In this document: positions 37,133 to 60,793 of the stretch, one piece after another
Layout: every line of letters begins with the position of its first letter
How positions within the stretch are numbered: position 1 is the stretch's first letter
NCBI GenBank assembly: GCA_963696385.1
Contig: CAVOKF010000007.1
Location: 1,312,001-1,376,000 of the forward strand
DNA from: an uncultured delta proteobacterium
Lineage (GTDB): Bacteria; Myxococcota_A; Polyangia; Polyangiales; Polyangiaceae
Length of the DNA: 64,000 nucleotides
Direction: 5' to 3'
Notes under the pieces: model-generated
Told to the model about the DNA's origin: nothing
The model's database searches: none
The model's input: only the letters and a program-made list of their open reading frames with translations
Program-made: the position numbers and the translations under genes

Positions 37133-37360
37133 CTTCAGCGGCGCCCTCGTCGTGATCCACCGCACGGCGGGATCGTGATCCACGGCACGGCCTGAAGGGG
37201 CGGCCGCGGGCGGCGGGATCGTGATCCAGGGGGGCGCCGTGGAATGCGCGATCGAGGGCGTCTCGCCGGACGCTGGCGTCGATGTCCAGGCGTCGATGCA
37301 GCGAGTGCTGGGCGGCCTGATGAAAACGATCACCGCCGTGACCGAGAGAGCGAGCAGCGC

Positions 37361-40087: not shown

Positions 40088-40934
40088 TAGCCGGACTCCC
40101 GCACTGAGCCGCCGGCCCGAGCGCTCGCGAGTCCTACCGGCGTCTTGGAGGGGTCCCCCTTCGCCCGGCCGAGCATCTCGGGTGCGAGCCACCGGCCCTG
40201 ACGCGCGCCCTTTCCGATAGCAAGGGGTGGGTCACGATCCCGCCGCCGCTGACACCCCGATCCCCGCGACGGGTGGATCACTTCGGTGACCCGAAGTGGA
40301 TCACTCCAAAGGCGCCGCTGAAGGCTCAAGGCACCGTTCGGTACGCGATGGCCGCCGCCACCAAGACGCCAAAGCCTGCAAGCCACACGGCCACCCGGCT
40401 GAAGCCCACCGGCGCCGACGCCCGCCGCGGACGACGCCGATCGCCGGCACAGGACGCAGAAACCATCGGGCCCGCACGCGAGATCGTGCCACGCGCAGCG
40501 CGCGGGTCGATGACGCAGCGATCCGGAGCCCCCACCATGGATTAACCCATGCATCTCACCCGCGCCGTCGCCTCTCTGTCAAAACGCGCGAGACCGCGCT
40601 TTTTCCGAAGGTTTCCGCACAGTGAACAGACGCTCCAAGAGATCGCTCCGGCCTGGCCTGGAGCAAGGGACGCGGAGCGCGCGCAAAAGCCGTGTTTTGC
40701 CTCCACGGGGTGAACTGCGCGGGCGTGACGAAACGTGCGAGGCGGACCCAGGCGCGGACCTTGATAGCAGGCGGAGCAGGTGCGGGAAATAAGTTGCTGC
40801 GGCCGCGCCCGGTCAGGGAAATCTCCCGCTCGCTGTCACCAACTCCGCCGGCCATCGGATTCGGACACGGTACCGTTCCAGCTTCGGGCGGTGTCGTCGA
40901 TGCTCTGCGCTGTCGTCTTCCGATCGCCGGGTCG

Positions 40935-42137: not shown

Positions 42138-42246
42138 TCTCCTGCCGAGAAGTGTCCCGTGGATCGAGAGCGAGCAGGATGGTTCAGGCATCAGGACTCC
42201 AGGGCCGAGCCGAGTCCTCGAACTGCAAATAACCTAGCCGTCCTTG

Positions 42247-43440
42247 TCACGGCGTCCTGGCGCACCGGAAACCTCGAATGGTGGAATGCACCGTCGTGTT
42301 GCCTTGTTCGCGAGATGGGACAAGCAAGAAATCCGGGGGGCCGTTCCAGCCGCCGCGGGCCACCCGGCCATCGTGTTCCGTAAGAAAGGCACAATCTGTG
42401 CACGGATCGACGTATGTAGCATACCAATCCAGGTTCCACTCAAAGACTTCCCCGGCCATATCCAGTTGACCCCAGTAGCCGGCTCCCAGCCTCGTCGTTC
42501 CGACCGGCGCAAGCTGCGTCGGGTTGGACCGGTACAGGTTGTCGTATATGGCGTACTGGGTATTGGACCCGGGCTCGGTCGCGCCCCAAGGGAACGCGCG
42601 CTGCTGACTTCCACCGGCCGCCACGTATTCCCATTCTGCCTCGCTCGGCAAGAAGCCACCGTCCCAAATGCAGAACGCGTACGCCTCGTACCAGTTCACG
42701 CAGGTGATCGGCAGATTCTCATAGCTGGCTGCCGTGCTTGTCCATGTGGGCGGGCCCATGTCCGGGGGGTTCAGGTTCGCGTTCCACGTGTTCGCCGCGC
42801 CAGGCCCCGTTGCGATGTACGTGTTCCAGTCCATCGCATCCCAGCCGGTCTCGTAGGTCCCTGGGTTCCCACTATTGGCCAATCCCAAGCCCCCATTCAA
42901 GTGCGTGTGAATGCCGCTTCCGTTCGCCGGCGGCGATCCCCCGGTGCCCGTCACGTAGTTGACGTAACGCCGGAAACGCCCCACCGTCACCAGGTACTTG
43001 TCCATACGGAATCCGCTCACCGTTGCCGGGTCGGCCAAACCAGTGGCTACACCATCCACGGGCGCTAAGGTCTGCCCGCTCTCGTCGAGATCGTAGGTGC
43101 GGTCGTACGTACCTCCGACGACCTCCAAGCTCGTGCAGCAACTCTCGCTGCCACTCCCTCCTGGCCCGCAGTTCGTCATCCCGGGCCCGCCGGGCTGGCA
43201 ACTCGGCGGCCCGTTCATTGAACTACCCGACGGGCTCGAAGCCGAGCCGGTTGGGCTCGTTGCGCCTACGCCTTGTACGGATGCGCCGCCGTCCACGTCG
43301 GTTACGGGCGTTTCGTCGGGTGCACTGGTTCTACCGCCACACCCTTGTAGAACGCAGATCGTGGCCGCGATCGCCCTTATCCTCGTTTGGAATCCGGCCG
43401 CTAACTGGCCCCTGCCGAGCCGTGCGGACGAAAAACTCAT
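42247..43440 (-). CDS. FGE-sulfatase domain lipoprotein 2
   Basis: Lipobox-like LQGC; same motifs; tandem paralog of lipoprotein 1. Confidence 0.92.
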   Translation of the reverse strand: MSFSSARLGRGQLAAGFQTRIRAIAATICVLQGCGGRTSAPDETPVTDVDGGASVQGVGATSPTGSASSPSGSSMNGPPSCQPGGPGMTNCGPGGSGSESCCTSLEVVGGTYDRTYDLDESGQTLAPVDGVATGLADPATVSGFRMDKYLVTVGRFRRYVNYVTGTGGSPPANGSGIHTHLNGGLGLANSGNPGTYETGWDAMDWNTYIATGPGAANTWNANLNPPDMGPPTWTSTAASYENLPITCVNWYEAYAFCIWDGGFLPSEAEWEYVAAGGSQQRAFPWGATEPGSNTQYAIYDNLYRSNPTQLAPVGTTRLGAGYWGQLDMAGEVFEWNLDWYATYVDPCTDCAFLTEHDGRVARGGWNGPPDFLLVPSREQGNTTVHSTIRGFRCARTP

Positions 43441-43889
43441 TGGGCAATCAAGTGGCTTTCGCATAGCGATGGTGACTCCGGCGATTGGGGCACGAGCGAC
43501 GGTAGCGTTCTCGCTCGGCGGTTCGAGTGCGGCCGAGAGGAGCATCCCCGCTGAGCGGCATTGGATGTCGACGACGACGGTATCTTTTGCTGGCGGCGGC
43601 ATCCATTTCACTCGATTGCAACGAACCCACGTTTGTGGCAGCGTTTCCGCGGCTTTCCGTCGATCGGCAGGCGTTGCACTCGGCCGGCGGCGGTCGTACG
43701 CTCCCGGTCCAGGCGGCATGAAGCTCGTCGACTGCACCCTCGCGCAGCACGGAGCCGCGGCGTGGACGAAGCCGTCACCGTGACTGATGGACGTCACGGA
43801 CGCCGACGCCGTTCACAAAGCTGCCTGGAGGAGAAGGACAATGAGCGTCGCAACAACAGGCCCACCACCCACACGACCCATACGATCGC

Positions 43890-44085
43890 AGGCAGGCGAC
43901 GACGGGCTCCTCGCGCGGCTCAGGGCTCGCTGGCCGACGTCCCTGATGCTCACTCATCCGGACGCGAACCGCGAGACGAGGCTGGCCGACATCGAGAAGG
44001 GGCGCGCGGACATAGTCTCGATTGGCAAGATGCTTCTGGCGAACCCCGACCTGGTTGCGCGCATCCGAGCAGGAGCACCGCCGGC
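43890..44085 (+). pseudogene. Old-yellow-enzyme/alkene reductase C-terminal fragment
   Basis: IEKGRADIVSIGKMLLANPDLVARIRAGAP. Confidence 0.7.
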
Positions 44086-44202
44086 GGAGTTCGCGGGCGA
44101 GTGTGTGCCGGTCTCGAACGAGGGTGTGATGGACCCTGAGCGCGCGTGCGAGCGCGATGGAGACGACGGCGACGGGCGGGGAGAGCACGTCTCCGGATCG
44201 AG

Positions 44203-44312
44203 CAAATCGGTTTGCCGCTCGGTGACAACGGAAGCCCCTAAGACGCGATATGTTTCCGCGGGGTCTTCCGCGGCTCTTCGTTGACCGATACCCTTTCGAC
44301 TGGCTACTCGCC
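44203..44312 (-). repeat. 110-bp repeat, copy A (left-type)
   Basis: CAAATCGG...CCCCTAAGACGCGATATGTTTCCGCGG...GCTCTTCGTTGACCG...GGCTACTCGCC. Confidence 0.85.
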
Positions 44313-44392
44313 TCGGCGGTGGACGAACGAGTGCGCGTCTGAGACCATGCAGTTCGACCTGCCGCGAGCGTGCGTGGACGCTTAAGTCGCCG

Positions 44393-44875
44393 GTGGCATT
44401 CGCGGAGAGACTCACGGCGGCGACCGACGGGCGGTCCACGGATGCGTACAAGTACAACCTTGTTGACGCCGAACCCGGCGGCCATCACTGCTGCACGAGC
44501 CTCGGGGAGTACCGGGTCATCGTGGGCCGCGTTGAGGCAACCGTCGACGCGCTCGCGGAGATTCGCACGAGCTTCGTGCCGCTGGCCGCCGGCGATCCGG
44601 ACCTGGGATGGGAGCCCGCGTCGGTGGGCGCAGACGACGTCGATGCACGCACGTGGACGGACCTCTGCGCCTTCATCGACGGCATCGTCCGCCGCGGAGT
44701 ACGAGGGCCGCCCCAGTTCATGAACAAGGGGGCGATCGCGGAGTTCCCCAGCTTCGAACTCGCGCGCGCGCTGTGCCGCAGCATCATCGCGCGATCTGGC
44801 TGCAGCCAGGGCCGGCCGGGCTGCGTGGCGATTCCCCCTCTAGCTCCACTACGGGCGCAGCGCCGTCAGTCTTGA
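44393..44875 (+). CDS. Hypothetical protein lying between repeat copies A and B
   Basis: 160-aa ORF that nearly fills the gap between the inverted repeats; no motif recognised. Confidence 0.5.
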   Translation: MAFAERLTAATDGRSTDAYKYNLVDAEPGGHHCCTSLGEYRVIVGRVEATVDALAEIRTSFVPLAAGDPDLGWEPASVGADDVDARTWTDLCAFIDGIVRRGVRGPPQFMNKGAIAEFPSFELARALCRSIIARSGCSQGRPGCVAIPPLAPLRAQRRQS

Positions 44876-45016
44876 CGGACGGACGATCGACTACGGCCTT
44901 CACGAGTTGGCCACGCTCGTCTGGAGGGCGAGTAGGCGGCGCAAAGCTTGTCGGCCGACGAAGAGACGCGGAAACCGCCGCGGTCACATAAAAGGCCTTT
45001 GGGGCGCTCGTTGTCA

Positions 45017-46966
45017 GTCGGGTAGGCCGGGGATGTTGTCTCCCCGGCCCCCCTTCGGATCCGGACGTGCGCAATTCACGCATCCGGCTCTTCGGTCACG
45101 GGTTCGCTGCGCGCGGGAGAAATGGGTGAGCGATGCGAGGCGGCGGGAGCGGGTAGCGCTCCAGCAGAAGCCGCATTCGCTTCCAAGGCATATGGCGTCG
45201 TTGCGACCGGCGGTTGAGCCACCGGCGCCACAACGCAATAGTCTTGCGGCAGAAGAGCGCGATGGCGCGGAAATTCCCGGTGATTCCGTAATATCCGTAG
45301 TGACCACGCAGCTTTTGCCCAAGTGCCTTCTGCTGCTCGCGGATGGCGTCGTGCCGGTGCTCCCTGCACCATTGCGCGACCCGCGACACCGCTCTCCGGA
45401 AGCGGTCTTTGGCTGTTTTGCGCATGACAATCCACTTGCCAGAGCGAGCTTTGCCCCAGTAGTGCGTGAAGCCGAGTAGGTCGAAGCTGCCAGGACCTCG
45501 GTCGCCGCCATCGACTTTCGATGAGCGACGGTCAGGGCGCTGAAACTCCACCAACCGCGTCTTCTCGGGATGCAGCGCCAGGCCGTACGCACCCAATCGC
45601 TTCGGCAGCACGTCCAGCACCTTGCGGGCATCCACTTCATGCGAAAACAAAAGCACTGCATCGTCCGCGTAGCGGACGAGCAGCGCCTTGCCCGAAAGCC
45701 TTGGTTTAACTTCGCGCTCAAACCAGACGTCGAGCACCTCGTGCAGGAAAATGTTCGCCAGAATCGGCGAAATCACCCCGCCCTGCGGTGTGCCCGTTTC
45801 CGGATACGCAATGGCTCCGTCTTCGAGCACGCCCGCATTCAACCACTTTCCGATGAGCCGCAGCAGCACTCCGTCGTGCACCCTGCGGCGTAGGACTTCC
45901 CGTAATTTCCCGTGGTCCAGGACGTCGAAGAACTTGCGTACGTCGACCTCGAGGACCCACCCGCCACCCATCATTACCGCTTGATTCTGCAGGGTCTCGA
46001 GCGCTTGATGCGCCGAGCGCCCCGGCCGGAAGCCGTACGAGCAGTCCAGAAAGTCCTGCTCGTAGACCGCCTCCAGCACCATCGCGACCGCGCGCTGCAA
46101 TACCTTATCTTCGAAGCTGGGAATGCCGAGCGGTCTCGTTTCCGAGCCGCTCCCCTTCGGGATATGGACTCGCCGCACCGGCGGTGCTCGGTACGTACCA
46201 GACTTCGCGCGTTCGAGAAGCGACTGCAGGTTGCCCTCCAGGTTTTCCGCATACTCTTGCGCGCTCTGCCCGTCTACGCCACGAGCCCCGTCCTTGCGTG
46301 TGCGTCGGTACGCTTCGCGGAGCCAGTCGGTATCGATGTGATGGGCAAGCGTTCGGAACGCCATATCGGGCGCGTCCTTCGCCAGCTTTGCTATCCGTTC
46401 GAGTTTCGTTGAGATGGGAATTGAGTTCGGCGCCTCGGCCATCGTTCCCTCCAGCGGTTCCGTGTTTTCCGGTGCCGCCCTTTGCTCGGCGGGGTCCCTT
46501 GGGACGGTTCCCCCGCGTCGTCGCTCCTACTGCGGCACTCCGACTTCCCGTCGCCCATCGCGCTTGGCTTCGTTGCCTTCGCCGCGCACTACCGCCGCAA
46601 TTCAACAGCCGGAGGCGCCGGGATATCCCAGGTTCCTGGACCGTCCTTTGCGTACATGCCCTGCTGTTCACCCCGGCAGAGTCGACGGGCCAGGCCTTCG
46701 GGCTCGCCCGACTTTTCGGCACGTCGATGTTGCCTTCCGCGTTTCAAAACGCGTCGGCCTCCGCGAAGAGACGGATTTCGAGGCTCTTTGCACGGCCTGC
46801 ACGCCCGCTGTGTACGCTTCGCAGCCGCGATTGCTCGCGAACCACGCAACACTCGCTTCCGGCTGGCGGCCCCGCCTTGGCCGGTCGGGAATTTCACCCG
46901 CGGACGGTTACGTGAGGTTTCCGCTCTTACATGTCTTCCTCCTCACCCAGGCTTCGCCTGGCGCAC
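45017..46966 (-). mobile_element. Group II intron I1, intact (class E-like)
   Basis: 5' GTGCG at 46966; domain V GAGCCGGATGCGTGAATTGCGCACGTCCGGATC; 3' end CCTACCCGAC; EBS1 TTGAAA (46742-46747) pairs with IBS1 TTTCAA. Confidence 0.95.
45096..46442 (-). CDS. ltrA: Group II intron reverse transcriptase/maturase, no endonuclease domain
   Basis: [34 protein letters not shown], domain X (LRGHYGYYG). Confidence 0.96.
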
Positions 46967-46989
46967 TTGAAAGCGCCGTCCCAATTGAG

Positions 46990-47180
46990 TGTCCTGCCTT
47001 TCTGCGAAGTCGTTCACCGGACAGGAATTCCATCGCCTTGCAGCGACGGCGACTGACGCGCAGCTGGAGACGGCGCAGATCGAGTTGGCCCGGGCCGCAG
47101 TGTCGAAGTTCGACCTCGGCACGAATGTGCTCGCGTTCGACACGACGAATTTTGACACGTACATCGCCACAACAACCGAG
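46990..47180 (+). pseudogene. IS1634-family transposase fragment
   Basis: AVSKFDLGTNVLAFDTTNFDTYI. Confidence 0.65.
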
Positions 47181-47417
47181 GGAGCAGCTGCTGCTTCTTG
47201 ACGGGCGCAGAGCTCGAGGGCGCCGGCTCGGTCCGCGTCGAGCCCATCGGGGCACGCGAGCCGTTGCTCGAGCTTTCGGGTGATCTTGCCCGCACCCTTG
47301 GCGATGGGGGTCCCGATCGCGCGCAAGTGGCACGTTGAGTCTCGTCCCCTCGCGCAAGGGCGTTCTCGCTCGCTGCTCGGAGAAAAGCGCCTCGTCGCAC
47401 TTGACGGTCAAATGGAA

Positions 47418-47466
47418 GCCGGTCGAAAGCGTATCGGTCAACGAAGAGCCGAGGAAGCCGCCGCGA
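47418..47466 (+). repeat. 110-bp repeat, partial copy C
   Basis: GCCGGTCGAAAGCGTATCGGTCAACGAAGAGCCGAGGAAGCCGCCGCG. Confidence 0.8.
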
Positions 47467-47566
47467 TGGCCGCGCGACCGGCAAAGCACCTTCCGGCGGG
47501 CTGAACCCAACCCAAGCGGGCACGACAAGTCCAGGTCTCCCCTGCCCCGTCGGGCGTACTTGCGGT

Positions 47567-48778
47567 TTAGGCTGCCCAGGCGCTCGGGGGAACGGCCACA
47601 GGATCGCCTGGAACCAGGGTGGCCACGGATACGTGCGGCCAAGTCAGGCCGGCGAAATTCAGGAACACGACCTGTGAGTATTGGATTTGCGTCGATGTAA
47701 CTGTGATCGTGATCGGTGTCGGAATGTCGCGCGGGGGCTCTACATGGAAGACCGGTGCGAATCGTCCGGACGGACCCGACGCCGGGATCTTCAAAGGGGC
47801 GTCTCCCAACTTGAAGACTGGAACGACAATCTTGTGCTCCACGGTCTCGATCCAGAACGTCGCCGTCATCTTGACAGCGTTGGCGTTCGGGTTCGTCGAA
47901 GTCGGATCGCCCAGCAAGAACGCGATGTCGTCCGTGCCTCCGCCGAACTCCGGCGGCGGGGGTATCGTCGAAACGGTAAAGACAATGGTGTTAGTGATCG
48001 TCTGCCCAGCGATGGCCTCTCGCAGCACGGTATTGGGGTCATTCAGGATGGGCTGGGTGATCGTTCCAGCCGCGATGAATTTCGTCAAGTCCTGCGGGAT
48101 TCTGGGGGTATCTCCATTCGACGCCGTCTGACTGGCAAATTGGATCAGATGTGGCGGGCTGCTTCCAATCAAGAACGGCGTGATGCTGACCGGCGGGATC
48201 GTGGGAGGACCCTTGATTGACGTCGTCGGCTCGAGGGTCTGTGCATTGATGGTGGTGCCGTGCGGGATGGACGCCATACGCACCAAGGAATTGGCCAAAA
48301 CGGGCCGCGTCTTGGTGGCTGGAATATGCATCCACAAGCCAGGCTCGAAATGAATAGCGGTTGCCGGCCCGTCCCCCTTGCCCGTTGCCTGGTTGGTCAC
48401 GTCCTTGATGGCTTGAACGTAGGGCACGCCATTGAGAAAAATGTCGTTCTGATCTTCCAAGCCACGATTGGGCACATTCCCGAGTGGGCTGCTGAAAGAC
48501 AGAGTCTCGGTCGTCAAGTTGAGCTCCAGAACGTTCTCGCTCGGTGGCGTTGGGGGCGCAGGGGTGACAGGGGTCGGAAAGGTGGTGGTGGTTGGCGCCA
48601 CGCTATTGGGACGAAAGATCATGTTGAAGCCGCTGCCGACGAAGGTACCGGTGAAGTTGGCCAGAACGCCAAGCGGCGGTGTCGGAGCTGGACCGACGCG
48701 GCGAACGGGTGCGATTTCATCGATGTGGAAATCAGGCGGCAGAGAGATCTGAGCAGGTTTGGACGTCTCGTCTGACAT
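47567..48778 (-). CDS. Putative heme-binding (beta-barrel, FMP-peroxidase-like) protein
   Basis: G.GFNMIFRP, LELNLTTETL.F, VPNRG, IHFEPGLW, SIPHGT, WPHVSVATL; AGGAG RBS upstream. Family recalled from memory. Confidence 0.6.
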   Translation of the reverse strand: MSDETSKPAQISLPPDFHIDEIAPVRRVGPAPTPPLGVLANFTGTFVGSGFNMIFRPNSVAPTTTTFPTPVTPAPPTPPSENVLELNLTTETLSFSSPLGNVPNRGLEDQNDIFLNGVPYVQAIKDVTNQATGKGDGPATAIHFEPGLWMHIPATKTRPVLANSLVRMASIPHGTTINAQTLEPTTSIKGPPTIPPVSITPFLIGSSPPHLIQFASQTASNGDTPRIPQDLTKFIAAGTITQPILNDPNTVLREAIAGQTITNTIVFTVSTIPPPPEFGGGTDDIAFLLGDPTSTNPNANAVKMTATFWIETVEHKIVVPVFKLGDAPLKIPASGPSGRFAPVFHVEPPRDIPTPITITVTSTQIQYSQVVFLNFAGLTWPHVSVATLVPGDPVAVPPSAWAA

Positions 48779-49151
48779 GGCGGTTATCTCCTCGTTGGTA
48801 GCGCGGTTGGCCCGTCTAGAATGCGATTCGAGGAGACAGTGTCCATTTCACTGCATTGCAGCGAGCAGTCCGAGCTTGTGGCTCAGCTTCAGGGCAACGA
48901 GTTTGCGGTTGGGCGGTAAGCGTGCAACGCGCCCCACTGTTTACCTGAGTTCAAGAAAGGTTCAGGGGGTCGGCGTCCGAGCGATCAAGCCACTGCCAAC
49001 GGTTCGGCAAGCTTCTTGCCCCGGTACACCTCGCGAATGTGGGCGAGCACGTTGAGACGGTCGTCGCGTCGACGTCGTTGCCGTGGCGGCAACAGAGCGC
49101 GGCCGTGTTCGGCGACTTCACGCCAGTGGTTTGATGAGGCAGAGGCCAGGC

Positions 49152-49262
49152 GGCGAGTAGCCGGTCGAAAGCGTATCGATCAACGAAGAGCCGCGGAAAC
49201 CGCGGCGGTCACATATAAGGCCTTTGGGGCGCTCGTTGTCATTGAAAGCGCCGTCCCAATTG
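49152..49262 (+). repeat. 111-bp repeat, copy D (right-type, uninterrupted)
   Basis: GGCGAGTAGCC...GGCCTTTGGGGCGCTCGTTGTCATTGAAAGCGCCGTCCCAATTG. Confidence 0.9.
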
Positions 49263-49349
49263 AGCGCACGTACGCTTACCCGTGCGTGCGCCTTTCTTTA
49301 CATCGCTACCGAAGGCGCAAGTGGTACGCTTGTCTATTGGGGGTGATGC

Positions 49350-49967
49350 GTGAGAGGGATAGGCTGGCTCTTTGCTCTGATATTCGGGGTCGTTCTAGTC
49401 GCCGCCGCAATGGGGTCACGCGATCGGGTCAGCCAGATCCGTGAGACTACGATGGCCTCTCCGGTCTCGCCCGCGACCACGACCGCGGCGGCGCGGGACA
49501 TCGAGATACCCGAGCGCGCCGTGATGCGTGCATGGATCGCAGGTGCGCCGCAGACCGACGAATTGCAAGCGTGTCTGAGCGCGCTCGGCTACGACGTGGG
49601 TCCGATCGACGGAATCGACGGCCCGAAGACGACGTCAGCCCTCAAAGCTTTCGTCGCGGGCGGCGAGCCGTCCGACGAACGCACCCGAGTCTGTTGGCGG
49701 GCCATCGAAACGAGACGAGCCTTCGATGCTATCGCTGTGCAGACTGCGCCGCCCGCGGTCGCCCCTGCGCCGACGTACCTACCGGCCTCTCAACAGGCGG
49801 CAACGGCTGCCCGGCAGACGGGTCCGGGGGCAGAACTGCCCGGACTGCCCGCCGCGGGCTACGGCGACGTCTCGAACACGACGGGCCTGCCGCGGACCCA
49901 GTGCGTGAACGGCTACACGCGGAAAGACGGGACCTACGTTGCCCCGTATTATCGGAGTCACCGCTAG
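49350..49967 (+). CDS. Exported protein with a peptidoglycan-binding domain
   Basis: N-terminal TM; LQACLSALGYDVGPIDGIDGPKTTSALKAF; C-terminal VNGYTRKDGTYVAPYYRS. Confidence 0.8.
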   Translation: MRGIGWLFALIFGVVLVAAAMGSRDRVSQIRETTMASPVSPATTTAAARDIEIPERAVMRAWIAGAPQTDELQACLSALGYDVGPIDGIDGPKTTSALKAFVAGGEPSDERTRVCWRAIETRRAFDAIAVQTAPPAVAPAPTYLPASQQAATAARQTGPGAELPGLPAAGYGDVSNTTGLPRTQCVNGYTRKDGTYVAPYYRSHR

Positions 49968-50912
49968 GCTCCACGAACGGACGTCGGCCCGCGAACGGGG
50001 CTTCGGCCGGTCGACCGGAAACGCGGGGGAACGTTCAAACGGTCGGCATGGTGAGGGAATGCTACTTCGGGGCGAAGCGCAAGGTCATGGGCGCGGGACG
50101 TTATAATAAAAGGTGGACACTGCCAGTCGGTTCAGTATGCTCTTGAGCATGCACGAGTTCATCCCGGTTGCTGTCCTGGTCGGCGCGACGTGTCAGATCT
50201 GCGGGCGCTACCTAACAGCCGAAGACGCCGCCGATGCTTCCCATCAAGAGACGGTGATTTGCATGTGCGGGAGCCGAGAGTTTCGCTTGCTGAATGGCGA
50301 GTGTTTGATGGACTGTCCAGACGCATAGCTGCGGCGTAAACCCGCGACCGCCGGCCCCGGCGTCCTACTCACTCCGCCACCCCGGCCAAATGAAAGATGA
50401 GCGCCACGACCAGCTCGCCCTTGGCGTTGGTCTTGATCCCCGAGCGGCAGGCGTAGCCGAGGGCGTGCGCGGCGGCCTTGAAGGCTTCAAGGGCAGAGAC
50501 GAGGGCGATCAGGATGCCTTCCCATCGGGTGGCGCTCATACCTGAACGTATGATCGGTACCGGCACGGCGTCAAGGACCGCTTCCCGCGCATCGCTGAGA
50601 GTGCGGCAATCGTAGCGCCCGGCGAAATTGGCACGGGTAAGTCCCTCAGCGGCGGCAGGACTGCGGAACGTCTCCTTCTAGTCTCTTTGACAGTTTGTTT
50701 GGCCAAATTGTGGCGTTGGCCCGGTTGATCGCGTAGTCCGCGCCGTGTGGAACTGTTCAAACGTTCCGGTTACTTGGACGAGTTGCTATCACTTCAGAGC
50801 CGGCAGACCGCGAAAAAACAGCGATTTTGCAGCACGGCGCGGCGTGCGTATAACATCCAAAGTGTTGGACGGGCGCGTGGACTCGCCCTTGGCCAACCGG
50901 AGTACATGGGGC

Positions 50913-51095
50913 ATGGCTGAAATTGCTGACATGGAGCAAGCGTTTCTGCGCGCACTCGAGGCCCTCAAGCAGATCCAGAACGCACCACGGCGCCAGATCG
51001 TTTACGCGCAAGAGGGCCCGCGGGTGTACGCGTTCACGAAGCGGGATGACCTTGCGGATCAGGTGCCGGCCGCTCGCGAGTTTGCTCGCAGATAA
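50913..51095 (+). CDS. Small hypothetical protein
   Basis: MAEIADMEQAF...; ends 6 nt before the next ORF. Confidence 0.4.
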   Translation: MAEIADMEQAFLRALEALKQIQNAPRRQIVYAQEGPRVYAFTKRDDLADQVPAAREFARR

Positions 51096-51101
51096 CCGCG
51101 C

Positions 51102-52229
51102 GTGTCCTTTTCGAGCCGCCTCCGGGGCGTCTTCGCCGGCCACCTGTTTGCCGGCTTCGTGGCGGCGGCCCTGCTGGTGGCCGGAATTGTGGGCGCTCCA
51201 CTTCTGGGCGCCACTTCACCGGCATACGCTTGGGCGTTCGTCGGAGTCGTAGCCTTCACATTTGTTGTCACGGCGGCACAGCAATTCGCGATTGCCGTTG
51301 AACGGCGCGAAGAGCAAGCACGCCTAACGCTTCAGCTCTCTTCTGCGGAAGCCCACCTCCAGGGCTTGGAGGCGGCTCATCGGCGTCTACCTGACCTTAT
51401 TCGCACAATGCCCGAAGAGGACTTTCTCCATCGGTTGGGGGGCACCGTCGAACAAGTCTTCCTCTTCGACGGACAGGCTGTGTCGAAAGCTGACATGCTA
51501 AAATCTCTTGGACTAAGACTCCATGGGATATCGCGTCTTGCTGCTATGTTCGACAGGGCCGGCGATGGATTCTGTGCCAACGCTATGCTTTTCGTGGAAG
51601 GTGACGAAGCGATTCCATGGTGGTCAAACGTTCTCTTCGATAGTGAAGGGGTCGCTTTGGCCGGACTCAGGGGACTACTAGTTCTTCCTCACGAAATAAC
51701 GTCGACGTCGGATGCCGTTCTAGATCCAAATGTAGCAGAAATAGCGCTACCCGTGCCTTTAGATCCAGGATCGGCCCGAAGTACCGGTGGTAGCGGCTGG
51801 AAAGTACTTCCCGGGGCGCCATTCGTATTCAGCGTTGATACAAGGTTCGAATTATTCGAAGGTTCAAAGGATATCGACGATTGGTGCGAGCGCGAAGGCG
51901 ACCATCCCGCTCACGTTCGCAGGAAACTCAGAGAATACTTCGAGAAGGCGCCATTTAGCGGCTTTCTCTCAATGCCATTGTACCCGCCGAGTGCGGATTA
52001 TAATGTAAAACGCACCCCAATAGGTGTAGTCAACATCCATTGGGGGAAAATCGACCGACTGCGTCAACGCGAAGCCGTCGCGAACTTCGTCGCTGGACTC
52101 TCGCCTCTACGAATTCTACTTGCCAACCGGCTTACCCGCCTGCGTGCGGAGCACGGTCCACCTAAGCCGACGGCAGGCAGGGAACCGCCGCGGGCGTCGG
52201 CTCCGCCTCAATCGAAGAAGACATCATGA
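51102..52229 (+). CDS. Two-TM protein with coiled coil and possible GAF-like domain
   Basis: Two N-terminal TM helices; FLSMPLY...PIGVVNIH is GAF-like; visibly more AT-rich than its flanks. Confidence 0.6.
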   Translation: MSFSSRLRGVFAGHLFAGFVAAALLVAGIVGAPLLGATSPAYAWAFVGVVAFTFVVTAAQQFAIAVERREEQARLTLQLSSAEAHLQGLEAAHRRLPDLIRTMPEEDFLHRLGGTVEQVFLFDGQAVSKADMLKSLGLRLHGISRLAAMFDRAGDGFCANAMLFVEGDEAIPWWSNVLFDSEGVALAGLRGLLVLPHEITSTSDAVLDPNVAEIALPVPLDPGSARSTGGSGWKVLPGAPFVFSVDTRFELFEGSKDIDDWCEREGDHPAHVRRKLREYFEKAPFSGFLSMPLYPPSADYNVKRTPIGVVNIHWGKIDRLRQREAVANFVAGLSPLRILLANRLTRLRAEHGPPKPTAGREPPRASAPPQSKKTS

Positions 52230-52537
52230 CTCTCCTTATCGTTGACGATACGCTTTTCGATTGGCTCAATATGTGGCACAATTCCTACGCTTGCCATGAC
52301 TTAAGGGCAGAGATCCATACTCTGCCGTTTCAACGCCCCCCGCCACCGCGGCGCTGAAATCTATAGTCATTTCTTCACTGACTTCGGGACATGACCCGTT
52401 TGAAACGCATGGCGCCACGCGGCCCTTTGGCTCTGTTCGACTATTGACAGGCGTAGATGGGAGGGATGACATGCCGGCAAAGCGGTCTGGGGTCGACGCC
52501 CGAGCCGTGGCCTCAACGTTCGGAAGGGGGCGAGTGC

Positions 52538-54064
<1,527 letters not shown>

Positions 54065-54072
54065 GCCTGACG

Positions 54073-55056
54073 ATGAAGCGCCCCCTCGACGGCTTGTGTC
54101 TCGCCCTGGCGCTCGCTCTCGCCTCGCCGCTCACCTCGGCGCAGACCGCGCCGGCGGGCCCCTCCGCGCACGATCGGCCCCTTGACAGCGTGCTTCAAGG
54201 GGCGGCGAAGGATGCGTACGTTTCGGCCCGGATCCTCTTCAACAACGGCGACTTCGCGGGTGCGGCCACCAAGTACGCCCAGGCGTACGATCTGTCGAGG
54301 GATCCGCGGCTGATCTTCAATCTCGCCATCTGCGAGAAAAACGCTCGCCACTACGCCCGAACGCAAGACTTGCTCGAGCAGTACGAGCGCGCGCTGGGCG
54401 CGCGGATCACGGCGGACGACCGAGCGACGGTCGACGCGGCGCTGGCGGCGCTTCGGAACCTGGTCGGAACGGTGCGGCTTGCGGTGACCGAGGCGGGGGC
54501 GTCGGTCTCGGTCGACGGCAAGTCTGTGGGCACGACGCCGCTCGACGCTCCGCTGCGGCTCGATCTCGGCGAGCACGCGCTCCGCGTGAAGAAGGCGGGG
54601 TTCGCGACGCACGATCAGACGGTGGAGGTCTCGGGGGGCAGCGAGACCGCCATGGCCATCACGCTGATGGCGGAGGCGCACGGGGCTCACCTCTTGGTCG
54701 TGGGCGAAGAGGACGCGACGGTGGCGATCGACGACAGGACCGTGGCCCAGGGGCGCTTCGACGGCCGAGTTGCGCCGGGCGTGCACACCGTGATCGTGAC
54801 GGCGCCGGGCAAGGTCGCATACAAGGCGGAGGTCGACCTGAAAGACGGCGAGACGCGCAGCGTGAACGTGACGCTCGAGAGCGACAACCACGGGGCCGCG
54901 GTCTGGCCGTGGATCGTGGGCGGGGTGGTGGTGGCGGCTGCCGGAGCGGCCGTCGGCGGGTACTTTTTGTTCCGGCAGCAGCCCGCGCAGGCGTCGGATC
55001 CGCCGGACAACCTGGGGTCGGCTCAACTTCCGCTCTCGGTGTGGGGGCGGCGATGA
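54073..55056 (+). CDS. TPR + PEGA domain membrane protein
   Basis: Signal peptide; TPR (YAQAYDLS...FNLAIC); PEGA (VSVDG..VGTTPL...GEH); C-terminal TM. Confidence 0.9.
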   Translation: MKRPLDGLCLALALALASPLTSAQTAPAGPSAHDRPLDSVLQGAAKDAYVSARILFNNGDFAGAATKYAQAYDLSRDPRLIFNLAICEKNARHYARTQDLLEQYERALGARITADDRATVDAALAALRNLVGTVRLAVTEAGASVSVDGKSVGTTPLDAPLRLDLGEHALRVKKAGFATHDQTVEVSGGSETAMAITLMAEAHGAHLLVVGEEDATVAIDDRTVAQGRFDGRVAPGVHTVIVTAPGKVAYKAEVDLKDGETRSVNVTLESDNHGAAVWPWIVGGVVVAAAGAAVGGYFLFRQQPAQASDPPDNLGSAQLPLSVWGRR

Positions 55057-57899
55057 TCGGGTCGACCCGGTCGAACGACCGAAGCCGCCGATCCGCCAGG
55101 TCGCGTGGGATCGGGTGGGCGCGTGCCCTACCATTGGCCGCGTGCATAGTGACCGTGGGGTCGGCGACGGGCGGATGCTCGAAACCCCCCGCGAAGCCCG
55201 TGGACGGCCTCGAGCTCGTCGTCTCGACCGAGGGGCTGAACGCCCCGCAAGACTTCGACGACATCAAGCTCGAGGTGAGCGACCAGGCGGACGGGGGAGG
55301 CTGGAACAAGATCTGGGACAACGACTACACGCTGCCCTCGACGGAGGTAACGCTGCCGGCGACCTTCACGCTGTTTGCGGGGCAAAGCCCCGACGAGGTG
55401 CTCATCGCCGTGACGGCATATCAGCACGGCCAGGGTGGGACCCCGGTGGTGCAGCGAGTCGCGCAAGTGCAGGTCCCGACCGACCGCCTTGCAGTGCTGT
55501 ACCTCGTCCTGGCGCAGCAGTGCGAGGGGCAAGTGGTCGAGGCCGGCGACGGGGGCGAGCCGATGTCCCTATGCGCGAGCGGAGAGAGCTGCCAGCCGAG
55601 CACGGGCGTGTGCGGGTCGAATATCATCCCGCCATCGGCGCTGCCGACGTATACGCAAGGGCAGAGTCTCGACGCGGGGCCCGACGGCGGGTTGGGCAGC
55701 GTGGTGGCCAGCATGCCGCCGAGTTCGGGCAGCTCAGCAACCAGCAGTTCGGCGTCAAGCAGCTCGGGAGCGGGGGGGACGAGCACATCCACGAGTACGG
55801 GCACCGGCACGTCCACCGGCACGGGCGCGGACGCGGGGCCGAGCGTCACCGGTACCGCCACGGGCACCGGTACCGGGTGCACGGATGCGTGCACCGCGGG
55901 TTTGACCGAATGTATCGACGCGGGCGTGCAGACCTGTCAGACCCAAGGCGGCTGCACGCAGTGGGTCGCGACGGTCACGTGCGGCAGTCACCAGACGTGC
56001 GCGGTCACTGGCGACATTGCCGCATGCGGTTGCACTTCGACGATCTGCACCACGACGGGAGCGGTGTGCCAGGACGCCCAGACGGTTGCGACATGCGCGA
56101 AGGACGCAAACGGTTGCCTCGACGTCGCGTCGACCGTGACCTGCACGTCTCCGGAGACCTGCGCAGCAGGCGATGGTGGCCTCGGCGCCGCGTGCTCGCT
56201 GACGTGCAGCAGTAGCTGCACCAAAGGGCAGGCGTCGTGCGTCTCGGGCGATCTGGCCACCTGTACGCAGGGGATCAACGGTTGCTCGGCTCTCGGCACG
56301 CCGGTCGCGTGCGGCGCCCACCAGAGCTGCACGGGAAGCGCTTTGGCGGCGACGTGCACGTGCAACCCGTCAACCGTTTGCATCGAGATCGGGACCGCGT
56401 GCGACGGGACCGGGACCGTCGCGACATGCGACAAGGACGCGAACGGTTGTTTCTTCGCTGCATCGACGCAAGCATGCGCGTCACCGGAGTCGTGCGTGGG
56501 GGCCCCGCCGAATGCGAAGTGCGCGCTCACTTGCACCAATAGCTGCACGTCGGGCCAGACGTTATGCGTCACGGGCGGCCTCGAGACGTGCACGCTGGGT
56601 ACCGACGGCTGCTGGGCGTACGCGCCGGCGGTGGCGTGCGGGGCGCACCAAAGCTGCACGACGAGCGCCGAGGTGGCGGCATGCACGTGCAACGTTAGCT
56701 CGACGTGCACGGTCGTGGGGAACGCGTGTGAGTCCACATCCACGTTGGCAACGTGCGCACAGGACGCGCAGGGGTGTTTCTTCGAATCGCAATTGACGAC
56801 GTGCACCAACGGCGCGTGCAGCGCTGGAGCGTGTTGCAGCAACGCGTGCACGATCGGAGCCGGTCAGTGTGTTCCGGGTGGGCTGGAGACGTGCACGCAG
56901 CAGCCGAATGGGTGCGCGGCATGGGGAAGTACTGAAGCCTGCCCGGCAGCGATGCCGAATTGCACCGCAGGAGCCTGCGATGCGCCGCCGAGTTGCCAAG
57001 TGAGTGCGGTGGGCACGACGAATTGCGGAACGGCCAGCGAAAGCTGTTGCACGAGTCTAGAGGTGACGGGCGGGACGTACGATCGGACGTACGCGAACAG
57101 CGGCACCGGACCGACGGGCGTAGCCGATCCGGCGATGGTGAGCGGGTTGCGCATGGACAAGTATTTGGTGACGGTGGGTCGTTTTCGGCAGTACGTGAAC
57201 TACCTTACGGGCAACACGGGCGCGCCGCCGGCGAACGGCAGCGGTATCCATACGCATTTGAATGGGGGGCGGGGACTGGCCAATAGCGGAGCTGCGGGGG
57301 CGTTCGAGACGGGCTGGGACGCGACGGACTGGGACACGTACATCGCCACGGGGGCTGGCGCGCCTAGCACGTGGAATACGTACCTGTCCGATTGCGGCCT
57401 ATCGAGCACGTGGACGATTTCCGCGGGCACTCATGAGAACCTGCCAATTAATTGCTTGGATTGGTACCAGGCCTATGCATTCTGTATTTGGGACGGGGGC
57501 TTTTTGCCCAGCGAGGCCGAATGGGAATACGTGGCGGCAGGCGGTAGCCAGGAGTTAGAATATCCGTGGGGTTCTACGGATCCCGGGACCAGCAGCCTGT
57601 ACGCAATTTACGAGAACGACGACATGACCGCGGCGGTTGGCTCAGCGAGCCTCGGCGCTGCCACTTGGGGCCAGCTAGATATGGCGGGCAATGTCGACGA
57701 GTGGAACCTCGATTGGTATGCAACCTACGTCGATCCGTGCGCAGATTGTGCCTACCTTTCCTCAACCTCCAATCGCGTGATCCGGGGCGGCAGTTGCGAG
57801 TCTACCGGCACGTCGCTGTTGCAGCCGCCCAGCCGCAGCGACGACTTTCCTGCAGATATCGAGGAGTGGATCGGGTTCCGGTGCGCCAGAAGGCCCTGA
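55053..57899 (+). CDS. Large lipoprotein with Cys-rich tandem repeats and a C-terminal FGE domain
   Basis: ATGA coupling to the PEGA gene; TGGC lipobox-like; about 3.5 repeats of ~105-110 aa; FGE motifs ending GFRCARRP. Confidence 0.92.
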   Translation: MIGSTRSNDRSRRSARSRGIGWARALPLAACIVTVGSATGGCSKPPAKPVDGLELVVSTEGLNAPQDFDDIKLEVSDQADGGGWNKIWDNDYTLPSTEVTLPATFTLFAGQSPDEVLIAVTAYQHGQGGTPVVQRVAQVQVPTDRLAVLYLVLAQQCEGQVVEAGDGGEPMSLCASGESCQPSTGVCGSNIIPPSALPTYTQGQSLDAGPDGGLGSVVASMPPSSGSSATSSSASSSSGAGGTSTSTSTGTGTSTGTGADAGPSVTGTATGTGTGCTDACTAGLTECIDAGVQTCQTQGGCTQWVATVTCGSHQTCAVTGDIAACGCTSTICTTTGAVCQDAQTVATCAKDANGCLDVASTVTCTSPETCAAGDGGLGAACSLTCSSSCTKGQASCVSGDLATCTQGINGCSALGTPVACGAHQSCTGSALAATCTCNPSTVCIEIGTACDGTGTVATCDKDANGCFFAASTQACASPESCVGAPPNAKCALTCTNSCTSGQTLCVTGGLETCTLGTDGCWAYAPAVACGAHQSCTTSAEVAACTCNVSSTCTVVGNACESTSTLATCAQDAQGCFFESQLTTCTNGACSAGACCSNACTIGAGQCVPGGLETCTQQPNGCAAWGSTEACPAAMPNCTAGACDAPPSCQVSAVGTTNCGTASESCCTSLEVTGGTYDRTYANSGTGPTGVADPAMVSGLRMDKYLVTVGRFRQYVNYLTGNTGAPPANGSGIHTHLNGGRGLANSGAAGAFETGWDATDWDTYIATGAGAPSTWNTYLSDCGLSSTWTISAGTHENLPINCLDWYQAYAFCIWDGGFLPSEAEWEYVAAGGSQELEYPWGSTDPGTSSLYAIYENDDMTAAVGSASLGAATWGQLDMAGNVDEWNLDWYATYVDPCADCAYLSSTSNRVIRGGSCESTGTSLLQPPSRSDDFPADIEEWIGFRCARRP

Positions 57900-57974
57900 T
57901 CGCAGCCGGAAACGGCTTTGGTGGCACTGGCGCGGGCATTCTTGATCGGTGAAGTGCGAGTGCCGGCACGTGCG

Positions 57975-58059
57975 TGGACGCGGTCGTCTCGGAGCGCAGC
58001 CCACAGGAACCCGACGAGCTCGCGTGCGATCGCGATGACGATCTTGTTACTGTTTTTGC
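57975..58059 (-). pseudogene. IS110-family transposase C-terminal fragment
   Basis: KNSNKIVIAIARELVGFLWAAL. Confidence 0.7.
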
Positions 58060-58153
58060 CAAATCGGTTCGCCGATTCAGCGATAACGAACGCCCCTAAG
58101 ACGCGATATGTTTCCGCGCCCGCTTCCGCGGCTCTTCGTCGACCGACGCACTT
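58060..58153 (-). repeat. 110-bp repeat, copy E (left-type), cut by the host intron
   Basis: CAAATCGG...CCCCTAAGACGCGATATGTTTCCGCG...GCTCTTCGTCGACCG matches copy A. Confidence 0.88.
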
Positions 58154-58197
58154 GTCGAGTAGCCCCGGGCGCTTACTGGCCCCGGGGCCCTCGCCGG

Positions 58198-60199
58198 GTA
58201 GGGTCGAGGACTGGCGCGGTGGCGTGCAGGGGGGCCAATCTGTTTCCGTCCCTTTCGGTTGACGGTGCCTCACTTGCCTCTCCATCGCTCCGTTTCCAGT
58301 CCCCGCCTCGTCCAACGGAGCAGGCGGATTTCCCGCACTCCGCTGTCCTGCCAGCTTCGCGCCAAGGTTTATGGGACCTATCGTGCTGGGAGCGCTTTCG
58401 GCATGTCCTGCCGCGGAGCCACTCGGTACCCATTGAAGAGCCCGAGCGTTCCGTAGAGCCATGACCTACTCCACCTCTTCCAGCCGAAACCGGGCAGGTT
58501 CCGGGCACGCATCAGATGTCGCCTCACCTTCTTCTCCACCCAGTCCTTGACGAAGCCGAAGCATCGGCTCGAGTGACCCACTCGAAAGTATTGCACCCAT
58601 CCGCGTAGAATCGGATTGATAATCTGCACCACCCGCTCCACCGGCTGGGACTGAAAACGTCGGAACACGTCCTTGAGCTTGCGCAGCAGCGCCGTCCGTT
58701 TCTTGCGTTGCGGCGTCAAATGCGGACGCCATTCACCGCGGAGACTGCGGATGCGACGAAAGTCAAAGCCGAGAAATCCGAAGCTCTCGTCTTTCGAGAG
58801 GTCCACGAGTCGACTCTTGTCTTCGTTGATTTCCACGTGAAGTTTGCTGAATTCTTCCCGGAGTCTACGGTTGACCGCCTGCAGCAACCAGGCATGGCGT
58901 CGGTAGGCGTCCACGAGGACCACAAGATCGTCAGCAAAGCGCGCATATTCGACATATGCGTACTTGCCTTCGGCCGTGACCTGTTTGGCGCGCTCGAGCA
59001 TCCTATCGACCTCATTGAGGTACAGGTTGCTGAGCACGGGTGAAATTACCCCGCCTTGGGGAACTCCCCTCTTACCGGATGCTTTGAGAATCATCGACAG
59101 GAGAGTCATGACCGCATCGTCGTTCACGCGCTTTGCGACTTTTTCGAGCAACACATGATGCCGAACGTTGTCGAAATAGGCTCGCAAATCGATGTCGAGG
59201 ATCCGGGTCTTATTCCTGACGACGGCCTCCGCTACCCGGCGGACCGCGCCATGCTGCGACCGCTTCGGGCGGTAGCCGTAGGACCCCGGTTGGAAGTCAG
59301 CTTCGAAAATGGGTTCCAGAATGAGCTTGAGTGCCCCCTGGACCACACGGTCGCGGATTGCAGGTATCGAGAGGACGCGAGTTTTGCCCCCATCCTTCGG
59401 TATCGCTTTCCGACGGTTCCGCATGGGTCGATACTGATGCGAGACTAGTTCGTCCCGTATCTGCCCGAGGAACTTCTCGACGCCGCTTGCCTCGATGGCC
59501 TCGAAGGTGACGCCGTCGATACCCGGCGCTCCATCGTTCTGCTTAACCATCTCGTAGGCGGCCTCAATCGTTTCCGTCTTGCAGACGTGGACGTACAGTC
59601 CCCAGAAACGCCAGGTTGGTTCAGCCTTCGCCTTCGCGTATATCCTCCGTCTCAGGTCCTGCAGACTAATAGGCGCCTTTATCATATCGCCCCTGCCTTC
59701 CGTTTCGTAAGAGGAATTACCAACAGCAGGGCCGCTTCGCTCCACGGGCATTACCCCGCTTCGACGCTACTACCGGCCCCTCCGCCACCCTTTCGCCTTC
59801 GGCCGACTTCCCGGGGTTGCCGGTTATACGACCTACCTTTTTCCGTCGATTTCTCGTCGGGGCGAGGAGGGCTTCTCCAGTTTCCAGCGCGTTCTTGTCT
59901 CCGTGCCGTCGCTACCACCCCGCCGGAGCGGTCCACCACGTCAACCAGTTTGTGGTGTGCCGTGCTGCCTTCGCCCTCCGGTTGAGGGCTCGGCCTCCGG
60001 GGTTTCTCCTTTTCGGGGCCACCTCTGCGTTCACTTTCGTTACGGCCCGGGGACTCGCTCACCATCCTTGCGATGGCTTTGTCAGTGGGCTTTAGGTCAT
60101 CGATTTCTCTCCTTCCTACCACTCAAGCTACGAGGCCTCTGGTTCTTAGCCTCGGTGGGACTGGCTCCCACAAAACGCGCCAGCCTTAGCTGGACGCAC
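58198..60199 (-). mobile_element. Group II intron I3 (class F-like), inserted in domain V of intron H
   Basis: 5' GTGCG at 60199; its own domain V GCGGAGTGCGGGAAATCCGCCTGCTCCGTT; long domain VI ending GACCCTAC. Confidence 0.92.
58378..59685 (-). CDS. ltrA: Group II intron RT/maturase of I3
   Basis: [38 protein letters not shown]. Confidence 0.95.
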   Translation of the reverse strand: MIKAPISLQDLRRRIYAKAKAEPTWRFWGLYVHVCKTETIEAAYEMVKQNDGAPGIDGVTFEAIEASGVEKFLGQIRDELVSHQYRPMRNRRKAIPKDGGKTRVLSIPAIRDRVVQGALKLILEPIFEADFQPGSYGYRPKRSQHGAVRRVAEAVVRNKTRILDIDLRAYFDNVRHHVLLEKVAKRVNDDAVMTLLSMILKASGKRGVPQGGVISPVLSNLYLNEVDRMLERAKQVTAEGKYAYVEYARFADDLVVLVDAYRRHAWLLQAVNRRLREEFSKLHVEINEDKSRLVDLSKDESFGFLGFDFRRIRSLRGEWRPHLTPQRKKRTALLRKLKDVFRRFQSQPVERVVQIINPILRGWVQYFRVGHSSRCFGFVKDWVEKKVRRHLMRARNLPGFGWKRWSRSWLYGTLGLFNGYRVAPRQDMPKALPAR

Positions 60200-60793
60200 A
60201 ACCGGACAAGGAGATTTCCACCATCCGGCTCTTCCGCTGAGCTGGCTCGTGGGTTACGTCCCCCAGATTCGGACCTTGATGCGGGGACGCGGGAGAGGAA
60301 GACGCTGCAGAAGCTCGTCATACTTTTCCCAGGTGAGGTGCGCTTGTTGGCTCCGACGGCGGAGCCACTTATACCAAACTCGCCTCGTCTCTTCGGCAAA
60401 CAGAAGCAGACTGCGAAAGTTGCCGCTGATGCCGAAATAGTTGAAGTGACCTTGGATGCGCCTCGTGAGCGCGGCGTGCTGCTCCTTGACCGGAAGGTGT
60501 CGATGGCGACGACACCAGTCCGCGACGGCTTGAATCGACCGTCGTAGGCGCGCACTCCGTGTCTTGCACGTCATTCCCCATCGACCGCTTCGGGAGCGCT
60601 GCCAGTACAGCGTGAATCCCAGAAAGTCGAAGGTGGCCGGACCCTTGCCGCCAACTTGCTCCGCCGGCGGACGCCGGAAGGGCAAGAGGCGGGTCTTGTC
60701 CGGGTGCAGGGTCAGCCCGAAACGCCCCATCCGCTTTCCCAGAACGTTCCATCACACGCTCCGCGTCGTCCTGATGTTCGAATGTCATCACGA

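Follow-up and report, generated by a model that had tools for sequence, protein, structure and literature searches.

A cluster of ~110-bp repeats that border unrelated and often broken genes raises the question of which enzyme produced them and how the DNA between them was acquired. The cluster lies in a 64,000-nucleotide stretch (hereafter the window) from an uncultured delta proteobacterium of the Polyangiaceae (GenBank assembly GCA_963696385.1, contig CAVOKF010000007.1, positions 1,312,001 to 1,376,000), in which five copies, A to E, were noticed between positions 44203 and 58153. The original prediction proposed that the copies are of a left and a right type and form the ends of a non-autonomous unit, similar to a miniature inverted-repeat transposable element (MITE) or a cassette and mobilized by an enzyme acting in trans, with an attC-like hairpin as the alternative. 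Judged from sequence comparisons, the repeat is the ~110-bp ori-side tail of an ISCR-like rolling-circle element of the IS91 family of insertion sequences (IS). Recognition by a recombinase or transposase supplied in trans thereby appears to hold, while the MITE-like left and right ends do not: we deal with a gene-shuffling variant of the IS91/ISCR kind, not with the ends of a new element.

Association with an ISCR-like transposase

Seven whole copies of the repeat shared a flank on their CAA side, and this flank led to a transposase gene. In all six transposase copies that reach residue 567, the repeat is located 70–72 bp after the stop codon on the same strand, and ori ~180 bp past it. The arrangement is common to both isoforms of the repeat, A/E and B/D: the transposase gene at C4:38203 has the E type behind it, and the remnant of one at C7:1421596 has the B type. 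Two of the transposase genes (C4:36433–38136, encoding 567 aa, and C6:130997) appear intact, and ~130 bp upstream are common to four of them. The protein exhibits the Y2_Tnp and Zn_Tnp_IS91 domains above the Pfam cut-off (E=2e-23 and 3e-17), its HUH motif and single Tyr align with those of ISCR1 and ISVsa3, and its best NCBIfam match is ISCR clade Ia. ISVsa3 and ISCR1 are also its nearest relatives on plasmids (35–38% identity), while the closest relative (92%) is encoded in a Polyangiaceae genome. At its far end, the repeat looks like the ends that lie 230–255 bp behind ISCR-type genes on plasmids, its end motif TTTGGACTTCCTAT (in one subtype) corresponding to TTTGAACTTCCTAT at the ori of one such plasmid element; the oriIS region of ISCR1 is given as 232 bp in the available text of PMC6218425. 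The linkage to the transposase and the ISCR-like far end together indicate that the repeat is the ori-side tail of the element. Its end matches that of a known IS, the ISCR oriIS, which the original prediction had named as a point against itself.

The intact transposase gene of locus L107 (C4:22000–38400) is situated directly behind genes for TrbL, TrbE/VirB4, a secretion ATPase and a coupling protein, and the adjacency of these type IV secretion genes suggests that a conjugative element may carry the C4 array. No type IV secretion genes were found among the open reading frames (ORFs) scanned upstream of the transposase in G122, another genome of the order.

Genome-wide census of the repeat

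A profile built from copies A, B, D and E, and then from 40 whole copies, was used to search the 6.9-Mb genome and, as a control, the reversed genome. It yielded 104 matches at E<=0.01 and 86 at E<=1e-5, as compared with none at E<=0.01 in the reversed genome; since some matches are halves of split copies, ~80 copies is taken as a fair count. The copies are clustered (68 of the 86 matches lie <=10 kb from another) and, as proposed from the window, they border variable, often broken cargo. The division into left and right types fared worse: both types occur behind transposase genes, A-like matches outnumber B-like ones 47 to 13, and direct pairs are the commonest among the 53 neighbour pairs within 10 kb (31, versus 13 ori-inward and 9 ori-outward). 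Genome-wide, there is no one-to-one inverted pairing, only an excess of mixed A/B pairs among inverted neighbours (10 of 16 typed pairs, versus 7 of 23 direct ones; p=0.004 by label shuffles of pairs that are not independent), which we read as copies of the same lineage being co-oriented.

In the 40 whole copies the flanks are unrelated and the two ends are unlike each other, i.e. there are no terminal inverted repeats. A search of the genome with 66 left-junction and 68 right-junction flanks identified no empty site that rejoins the flanks of one copy, 37 flanks from another genome, G003 (15 of its ~330 contigs), identified no rejoined site in the studied genome, and no target duplication was found at the searched flanks. 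G003 is the one genome among 40 others in which BLAST with copy A detected the family; this query was too specific, because other genomes carry their own tails. Contigs of four sets covering positions 43600–50200 of the window break at every repeat, and the joints resemble cross-mapping between copies.

Repeat copies in the window

Re-inspection and profile matches confirmed all five copies where they had been reported. Their strands are quoted here in the sense of the transposase gene (A and E, +; B, C and D, −), A and E being inverted relative to the other three; the outer ends are CAAATCGG for A and E and CCCAATTG for B and D. Copy A (44203–44312, 110 bp, +) is a whole solo tail that begins with the internal start CAAATCGG and terminates with the oriIS-like TACTCGC, and it recurs with both flanks in G003 with 1 substitution. 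Its dif-like core (44231–44258, +) reads GAAGCCCCTAA GACGCG ATATGTTTCCG and matches the arms of the candidate host dif (see below) at 9/11 and 6/11 positions, counted by eye. Copy B (−) is split, as had been reported: bases 22–110 occupy 44928–45016 (dif-like core 44981–45008, ori end at 44928), while bases 1–21, with the start TCAATTGGG and the T before them, occupy 46967–46988. The insert, inserted between bases 21 and 22, could now be identified by Rfam as a group II intron (45017–46966, −) with a reverse transcriptase (RT)/maturase gene at 45096–46442. Upon its removal B measures 111 bp, and the inverted arrangement of A and B around a single ORF of 160 aa is also confirmed. Copy C (~47417–47467, −) is a right-arm remnant, corresponding to model positions 54–104, which lacks the dif core and has lost the ori end. 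Copy D (49152–49262, 111 bp, −; core 49206–49233) is a whole solo tail and an exact two-parent mosaic, with a B-type left part, a right part of another isoform and the crossover at model positions 44–46, hence inside the dif-like centre.

Copy E (58060–58153, +; core 58089–58116), with 94 bp at these coordinates, turned out to be a whole one with an interruption. Over bases 1–94 it is identical to the C4:38203 tail, which belongs to an intact transposase; after base 94 follows a nest of group II introns (58154–64000, −), into which an IS21 element is inserted and which continues past the window to C7:1380593, and the last 16 bases, with the ori end, are found at C7:1380594, 10.4 kb further on. 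A possible sixth match upstream of A (~43643–43677) is weak and corresponds to a degenerate right arm (E=5e-4 in the G003 copy). The Rfam scan of the window identified group II intron parts and nothing else.

The internal start site and the junction rule

The tail starts at a fixed internal site behind the stop codon of the transposase, namely the (T)CA that closes the conserved motif TTGGA...TCA. Solo copies share the same limits and are joined to their flanks as x-RC|(T)CAA...TACTCGC|(T)C-y. Of 44 unique solo flanks on the left side, 34 end in RC(T), against a background of 0.20 (p=3e-16), and of 64 on the right side, 58 begin with (T)C, against a background of 0.40 (p=5e-17); the same rule is followed in G122 (left 18/25, right 24/29). 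After ori there is only the (T)C, which is mirrored by the (T)C at the internal start. Eight copies retain the internal motif upstream, and it was identified in 20 of 26 related tails versus 16% of random windows, using a regular expression drawn up after the tails had been viewed. One copy has the same right flank in G003 and in the studied genome, and is solo in the former and attached to a transposase in the latter.

The pieces between clustered tails are often copies of DNA that is intact elsewhere. At the start of B, an IS1634 transposase fragment (46989–47184, +; 196 bp) is cut at AC| and joined to the tail. It is 100% identical to three other places in the genome, all of which run on past both cuts; the fragment stops at AC where its other copies have a C next, so the T is part of the tail. 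Its match to the NCBIfam IS1634 model (E=2e-4) is under the cut-off. At the start of E, a probable C-terminal fragment of an IS110-family transposase (57893–58057, −) is cut at GC|; it shows 51% identity over 39 aa (E=3e-4) to the C-terminus of the genome's own IS110-family transposase. The claim that copies abut broken genes is confirmed for the IS1634 piece and probable for the IS110 one. For the flanks with a repeat-free counterpart (10 left, 16 right), the missing part was never found on the same or another copy.

Arrays in other Polyangiales genomes

The transposase family was found in at least 107 of the 251 genomes of the order searched. Eight genomes picked among the best transposase matches (G006, G122, G054, G073, G004, G034, G116 and G188) were each queried with their own tail, and all eight possess solo copies that begin at the matching internal site. 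Among the matches listed, such starts account for 10 of 12 non-self matches in G004 and 19 of 27 short ones in G116. The clearest arrays are those of G122, where three of them follow three transposase-linked tails on the downstream side. In these regions 38 of 41 matches, tails and split halves counted, are co-oriented with the transposase-linked tail, and there are 0 matches in the 9–11 kb upstream of those tails. Clustered copies of the studied genome also mostly share the orientation of such a tail. G122 also contains one exact head-to-tail ori|CA pair, a 299-bp cassette that corresponds as a whole to a repeat-free donor (98% identity, with AC|C as the cut in the donor), a 340-bp piece that is enclosed by facing ori ends and 100% identical to its donor, likewise free of repeats, and one cargo in three versions with two different starts and two different ends.

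A two-gene element (L087:3397–5904 in G122, and its kin), which encodes a tyrosine integrase and a canonical IS91 transposase, is repeatedly inserted within the dif-like core of the G122 tails, beside TAAG and with CAAG at its other end; it is an IS91-family element that targets the tail of another.

The dif-like centre of the repeat

Bases 30–57 of the repeat are laid out as 11-6-11, the arms being conserved and the centre variable. They were compared with a dif matrix derived from only five published deltaproteobacterial dif sites (accessible part of PMC2731167). The top score in the genome (23.9) was obtained for C3:50596, which lies outside the repeats and is the candidate host dif; GC skew and counts of FtsK-orienting polar sequences (KOPS) weakly support its position as the terminus. 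Counted by eye, the repeat arms match C3:50596 at 8–10/11 and 6–9/11 positions, and the commonest core at 10/11 in the XerC arm and 6/11 in the XerD arm. The matrix scores are 4.2 for the commonest core, which is below the 95th percentile of random 300-base windows (4.7), 7.4 for the B type and 15.3 for the best one. A survey of related tails, covering the 26 of 31 loci with downstream sequence and excluding the genome itself, revealed a dif-like site above the 99th percentile behind 11 of 25 related transposases (p=1e-5, with kin that are not independent). Behind ISCR1, ISVsa3 and L077 no dif-like match exceeded the shuffle level, and L079 was borderline. The tail of G116 has no dif match (score −2.5), and the presence of solo copies in that genome indicates that the dif-like site is dispensable.

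The host has XerC and XerD genes, the best matches to the NCBIfam models reaching 310 of 335 and 314 of 330, slightly below the cut-off. Among the 43 unique copies, 6 are clear mosaics, of which D alone is pinned to the centre and five have wide or off-centre intervals; the breakpoint density across the six peaks in the centre, and a linkage scan revealed no drop across it. Use of the dif-like centre by Xer recombinases appears plausible on these grounds, yet unproven.

A Bdellovibrio plasmid (AP029177.1, L080) carries an ISCR-like gene that is followed, at 38 bp, by a dif-like match with a score above 100 of 100 shuffles. Strong dif-like sites also occur outside the repeat family at C4:1148126, C2:75134 and C7:603464 (scores 18.9–19.4), two of them within repeat clusters.

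How the arrays may have formed

The anatomy of the tail, its limits, the junction rule, the clustering and the donors are directly observed; a mechanism that connects them may be sketched by analogy with the IS91 model and with IS801. IS91 is described (PMC13181058, in part) as rolling from ori to ter, with bottom-strand ori-ter circles, one-ended events and no target duplication, and for IS801 right-end minis of 229–679 nt were made and neighbouring DNA was mobilised (PMC3189936, in part). We consider it probable that the repeats originate from the HUH enzyme and that cargo is captured in an ordered manner. The enzyme, acting in trans, would nick at ori and then at the internal site, and the tail would be freed as a single strand or a circle. 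It would also cut other DNA at ori-like RC|Y sequences and stop at loose (T)C sites, thereby releasing cargo. Tail and captured piece would then be joined into the resident ori junction, itself the best target, and repeated rounds would pile units of piece plus tail behind the element, much as in an integron, except that the ends would be cut anew each time. The dif-like centre would be an accessory, possibly engaged in dimer resolution by host XerCD or in swapping of arms, and not needed for solo tails. It is a more tentative proposal, for which we would give slightly less than an even chance, that an ISCR-like HUH clade of the Polyangiales constitutes an integron-like capture platform, with an internal second nick, a reusable spacer tail and arbitrary pieces stacked behind ori, to which many lineages would have added a mimic of the host dif for XerCD.

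A number of observations weigh against ordered capture by the HUH enzyme. The transposase scores under the NCBIfam cut-offs (283 of 925 for ISCR clade Ia, 97 of 125 for IS91), and according to the available text of PMC6218425 transposition had, as of 2018, been shown for no ISCR element. The junction motifs comprise 2–3 bases, i.e. they are shorter than the IS91 tetranucleotide, and they are asymmetric; copy A breaks the left rule (GAG|C), and a conserved hairpin at the internal site was looked for by folding and not found. RC(T) precedes the right-flank donors in 7 of 16 cases, more rarely than at left junctions (p=0.03), and left-flank donors go on with (T)C in 6 of 10, which is not significant (p=0.17); this asymmetry makes the two junctions look like products of different cuts rather than of one clean insertion. 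The pairs C6:4037 with C7:6195 and C2:131497 with G003 L019 share a right flank and differ in the left one, which is not explained by rolling from ori alone. Ori-inward pairs such as A–B would require recombination or a further insertion into the opposite strand. The arrays of the studied genome are mixed (copies in the same/opposite orientation downstream of eight tails: 1/0, 6/2, 4/2, 5/1, 11/4, 4/3, 1/5, 8/5) and contain no head-to-tail ori|CAAAT pair, while in G188 copies flank a transposase-linked tail on both sides. Finally, Bardaji et al. (PMC3189936, in the part available) attribute most IS801 fragments to rearrangement.

Could the transposase have scattered the tails at first, the cargo now being moved mainly by XerC and XerD at the dif-like centres, with flanks swapped, as in pdif-like modules? 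The 11-6-11 layout, the 10/11 match of the XerC arm to C3:50596, the best-match XerC and XerD genes and the dif-like sites behind 11 of 25 related transposases would fit, as would the crossover of D inside the centre, the peak of breakpoint density there and the identical right flanks with different left ones; moreover, xrs pairs of Acinetobacter are often inverted or unlike in their centres (PMC11705084, in part). We nevertheless regard it as unlikely, given that the commonest core scores below the random 95th percentile and matches the XerD arm at 6/11, five of the six mosaics are wide or off-centre, linkage does not drop across the centre, no left flank finds its missing continuation on the right arm of another copy, solo arrays exist in G116 without a dif match, and direct pairs with the same centre persist. 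Rather improbable is also a passive origin, in which one-ended IS91-type minis were inserted singly and their flanks were scrambled later by homologous recombination, deletions and other IS, with no ordered capture. IS801 and the conclusion of its authors (PMC3189936, in part) provide a precedent, orientation is mixed in the studied genome, the cargo is often gene debris, and IS4, IS110 and introns, repetitive in their own right, interrupt many copies. Yet recombination predicts a partner that carries the other half of the target, and none was found among the 10 left and 16 right donor-bearing flanks; neither are the one-sided co-oriented arrays, the exact head-to-tail pair and the cargo cut at several rule-fitting points accounted for.

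The two explanations of the original prediction can be given very little weight. A MITE-like carrier with A-type and B-type ends would agree with the inversion of A and B about one ORF, preserved in G003, and with the enrichment of mixed pairs among inverted neighbours. It is very improbable in view of the presence of both types behind transposase genes, their unequal numbers and the majority of direct pairs; mixed inverted pairs face both inward (6) and outward (4), D is a hybrid, and neither a target duplication nor an empty site was found. Still less probable are single-stranded integron hairpins of the attC kind. One strand of A does fold into a long stem (z −2.3), and the arrays look like cassette arrays, but RYYYAAC...GTTRRRY cores occur in 0 of 43 unique copies on either strand, folds vary between three subtypes (z −1.1 to −2.3) and show no consensus in the left arm, and the ends of the cargo cut through genes. 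The TCAAC...GTTGTCA hairpin is not general to the family and, with no cores and no conserved long hairpin, the attC identity was rejected.

Cargo and neighbouring genes

The facing ori ends of A and B enclose a 615-bp cargo with the 160-aa ORF (44393–44875, +), which is single-copy in the genome and belongs to no Pfam family; a search of Atlas, which was not a deep homology search, provided no useful match (best 0.76). The A–B locus is 99.98% identical in G003. Between the start ends of D and E lies a cargo of 8.8 kb (49263–58059), of which 8.5 kb are found in G003 at 100% identity, with genes for a peptidoglycan-binding protein, a Ser/Thr kinase, a PEGA protein and an FGE-sulfatase-domain protein. 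Three paralogous FGE-sulfatase-domain genes (74–86% alike) are present in the window at 40935–43797 and 54909–57899, and many more in the genome. An IS21-family element (IstA/IstB) is represented by two inverted copies (37244–40323 and 63564–64000), the second of which is inside the intron nest of E.

Insertions into the repeats

Copies of the repeat are hot spots for introns and other IS. A 1.48-kb IS with CAT ends has repeatedly been inserted after repeat base 48 with a 10-bp duplication (C4:1144851–1146326, C7:1397665–1399140, C8:878418–879892), and repeat copies with a doubled TAAGACGCGAT look like its excision footprints; it inserts elsewhere too (at least 27 ends), and judging by its ends we take it to be IS4-like. 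A 1.79-kb IS110-family element (C6:114405–116194; L110:90–1478) abuts base 9 of several copies. Two types of group II intron home to fixed sites of the repeat, their 3' ends abutting it in 3 of 3 cases for the first type and 4 of 4 for the second, and the nest in E contains at least 4 RT genes or parts of them.

Relationship to known systems and implications

ISCR1 and ISCR2/ISVsa3 resemble the element described here in their transposase domains, in the HUH motif and single Tyr, in a downstream ori end with a similar motif and in the variable DNA beyond it. They differ in that 232 bp are given for the oriIS region of ISCR1 (PMC6218425, in part), as against a distance of ~180 bp from stop to ori here; moreover, the tail described here begins at a fixed internal point, exists in ~80 solo copies and carries a dif-like centre that ISCR1, ISVsa3 and L077 lack at shuffle level. 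The IS801 minis, as presented in the available part of PMC3189936, are likewise short ori-side pieces that are moved in trans, start at a short target-like motif and may carry neighbours. They come in three sizes, use a tetranucleotide and are rare in genomes, in contrast to the one start per lineage, the 2–3-base rule, the tens of copies and the ordered cargo arrays found here. The pdif/xrs sites of Acinetobacter plasmids share the multitude of dif-like sites, the variable centres and the variable cargo; by comparison with the account in PMC11705084, as far as available, the site here is inside a transposon tail and on large contigs, orientation does not alternate, the arms are weaker, and in G116 arrays arise without any dif-like site. 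Integron cassette arrays (partly after PMC12772301, in part) also consist of co-oriented spacer-cargo units behind an enzyme gene, but the repeats have no attC cores, the enzyme is of the HUH type rather than a tyrosine integrase, and cargo ends fall anywhere, often within genes. With Helitrons, as far as the available sources describe them, the system shares its rolling-circle nature, non-autonomous copies and capture of gene fragments; it differs in being bacterial, in its 110-bp unit and in having no helicase domain found by Pfam.

A search of the literature, beyond which lay most subscription journals, IS databases and supplements, so that an earlier description is possible, found no account of solo ISCR tails, of dif in ISCR ends or of such myxobacterial arrays, nor any link between rolling-circle IS and host Xer recombination. 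The dif mimic in many of the tails would tie the two together. ISCR elements are credited with the capture of resistance genes, and their transposition had not been shown by 2018 (PMC6218425, in part); from the tens of dated junctions per element reported here, a direct test can take a rule for the cuts and well-defined substrates of ~110 bp. Should the proposed stacking prove true, an HUH enzyme builds cassette arrays without attC; bacteria would then have an equivalent of capture by Helitrons, and myxobacteria a source of their variable islands.

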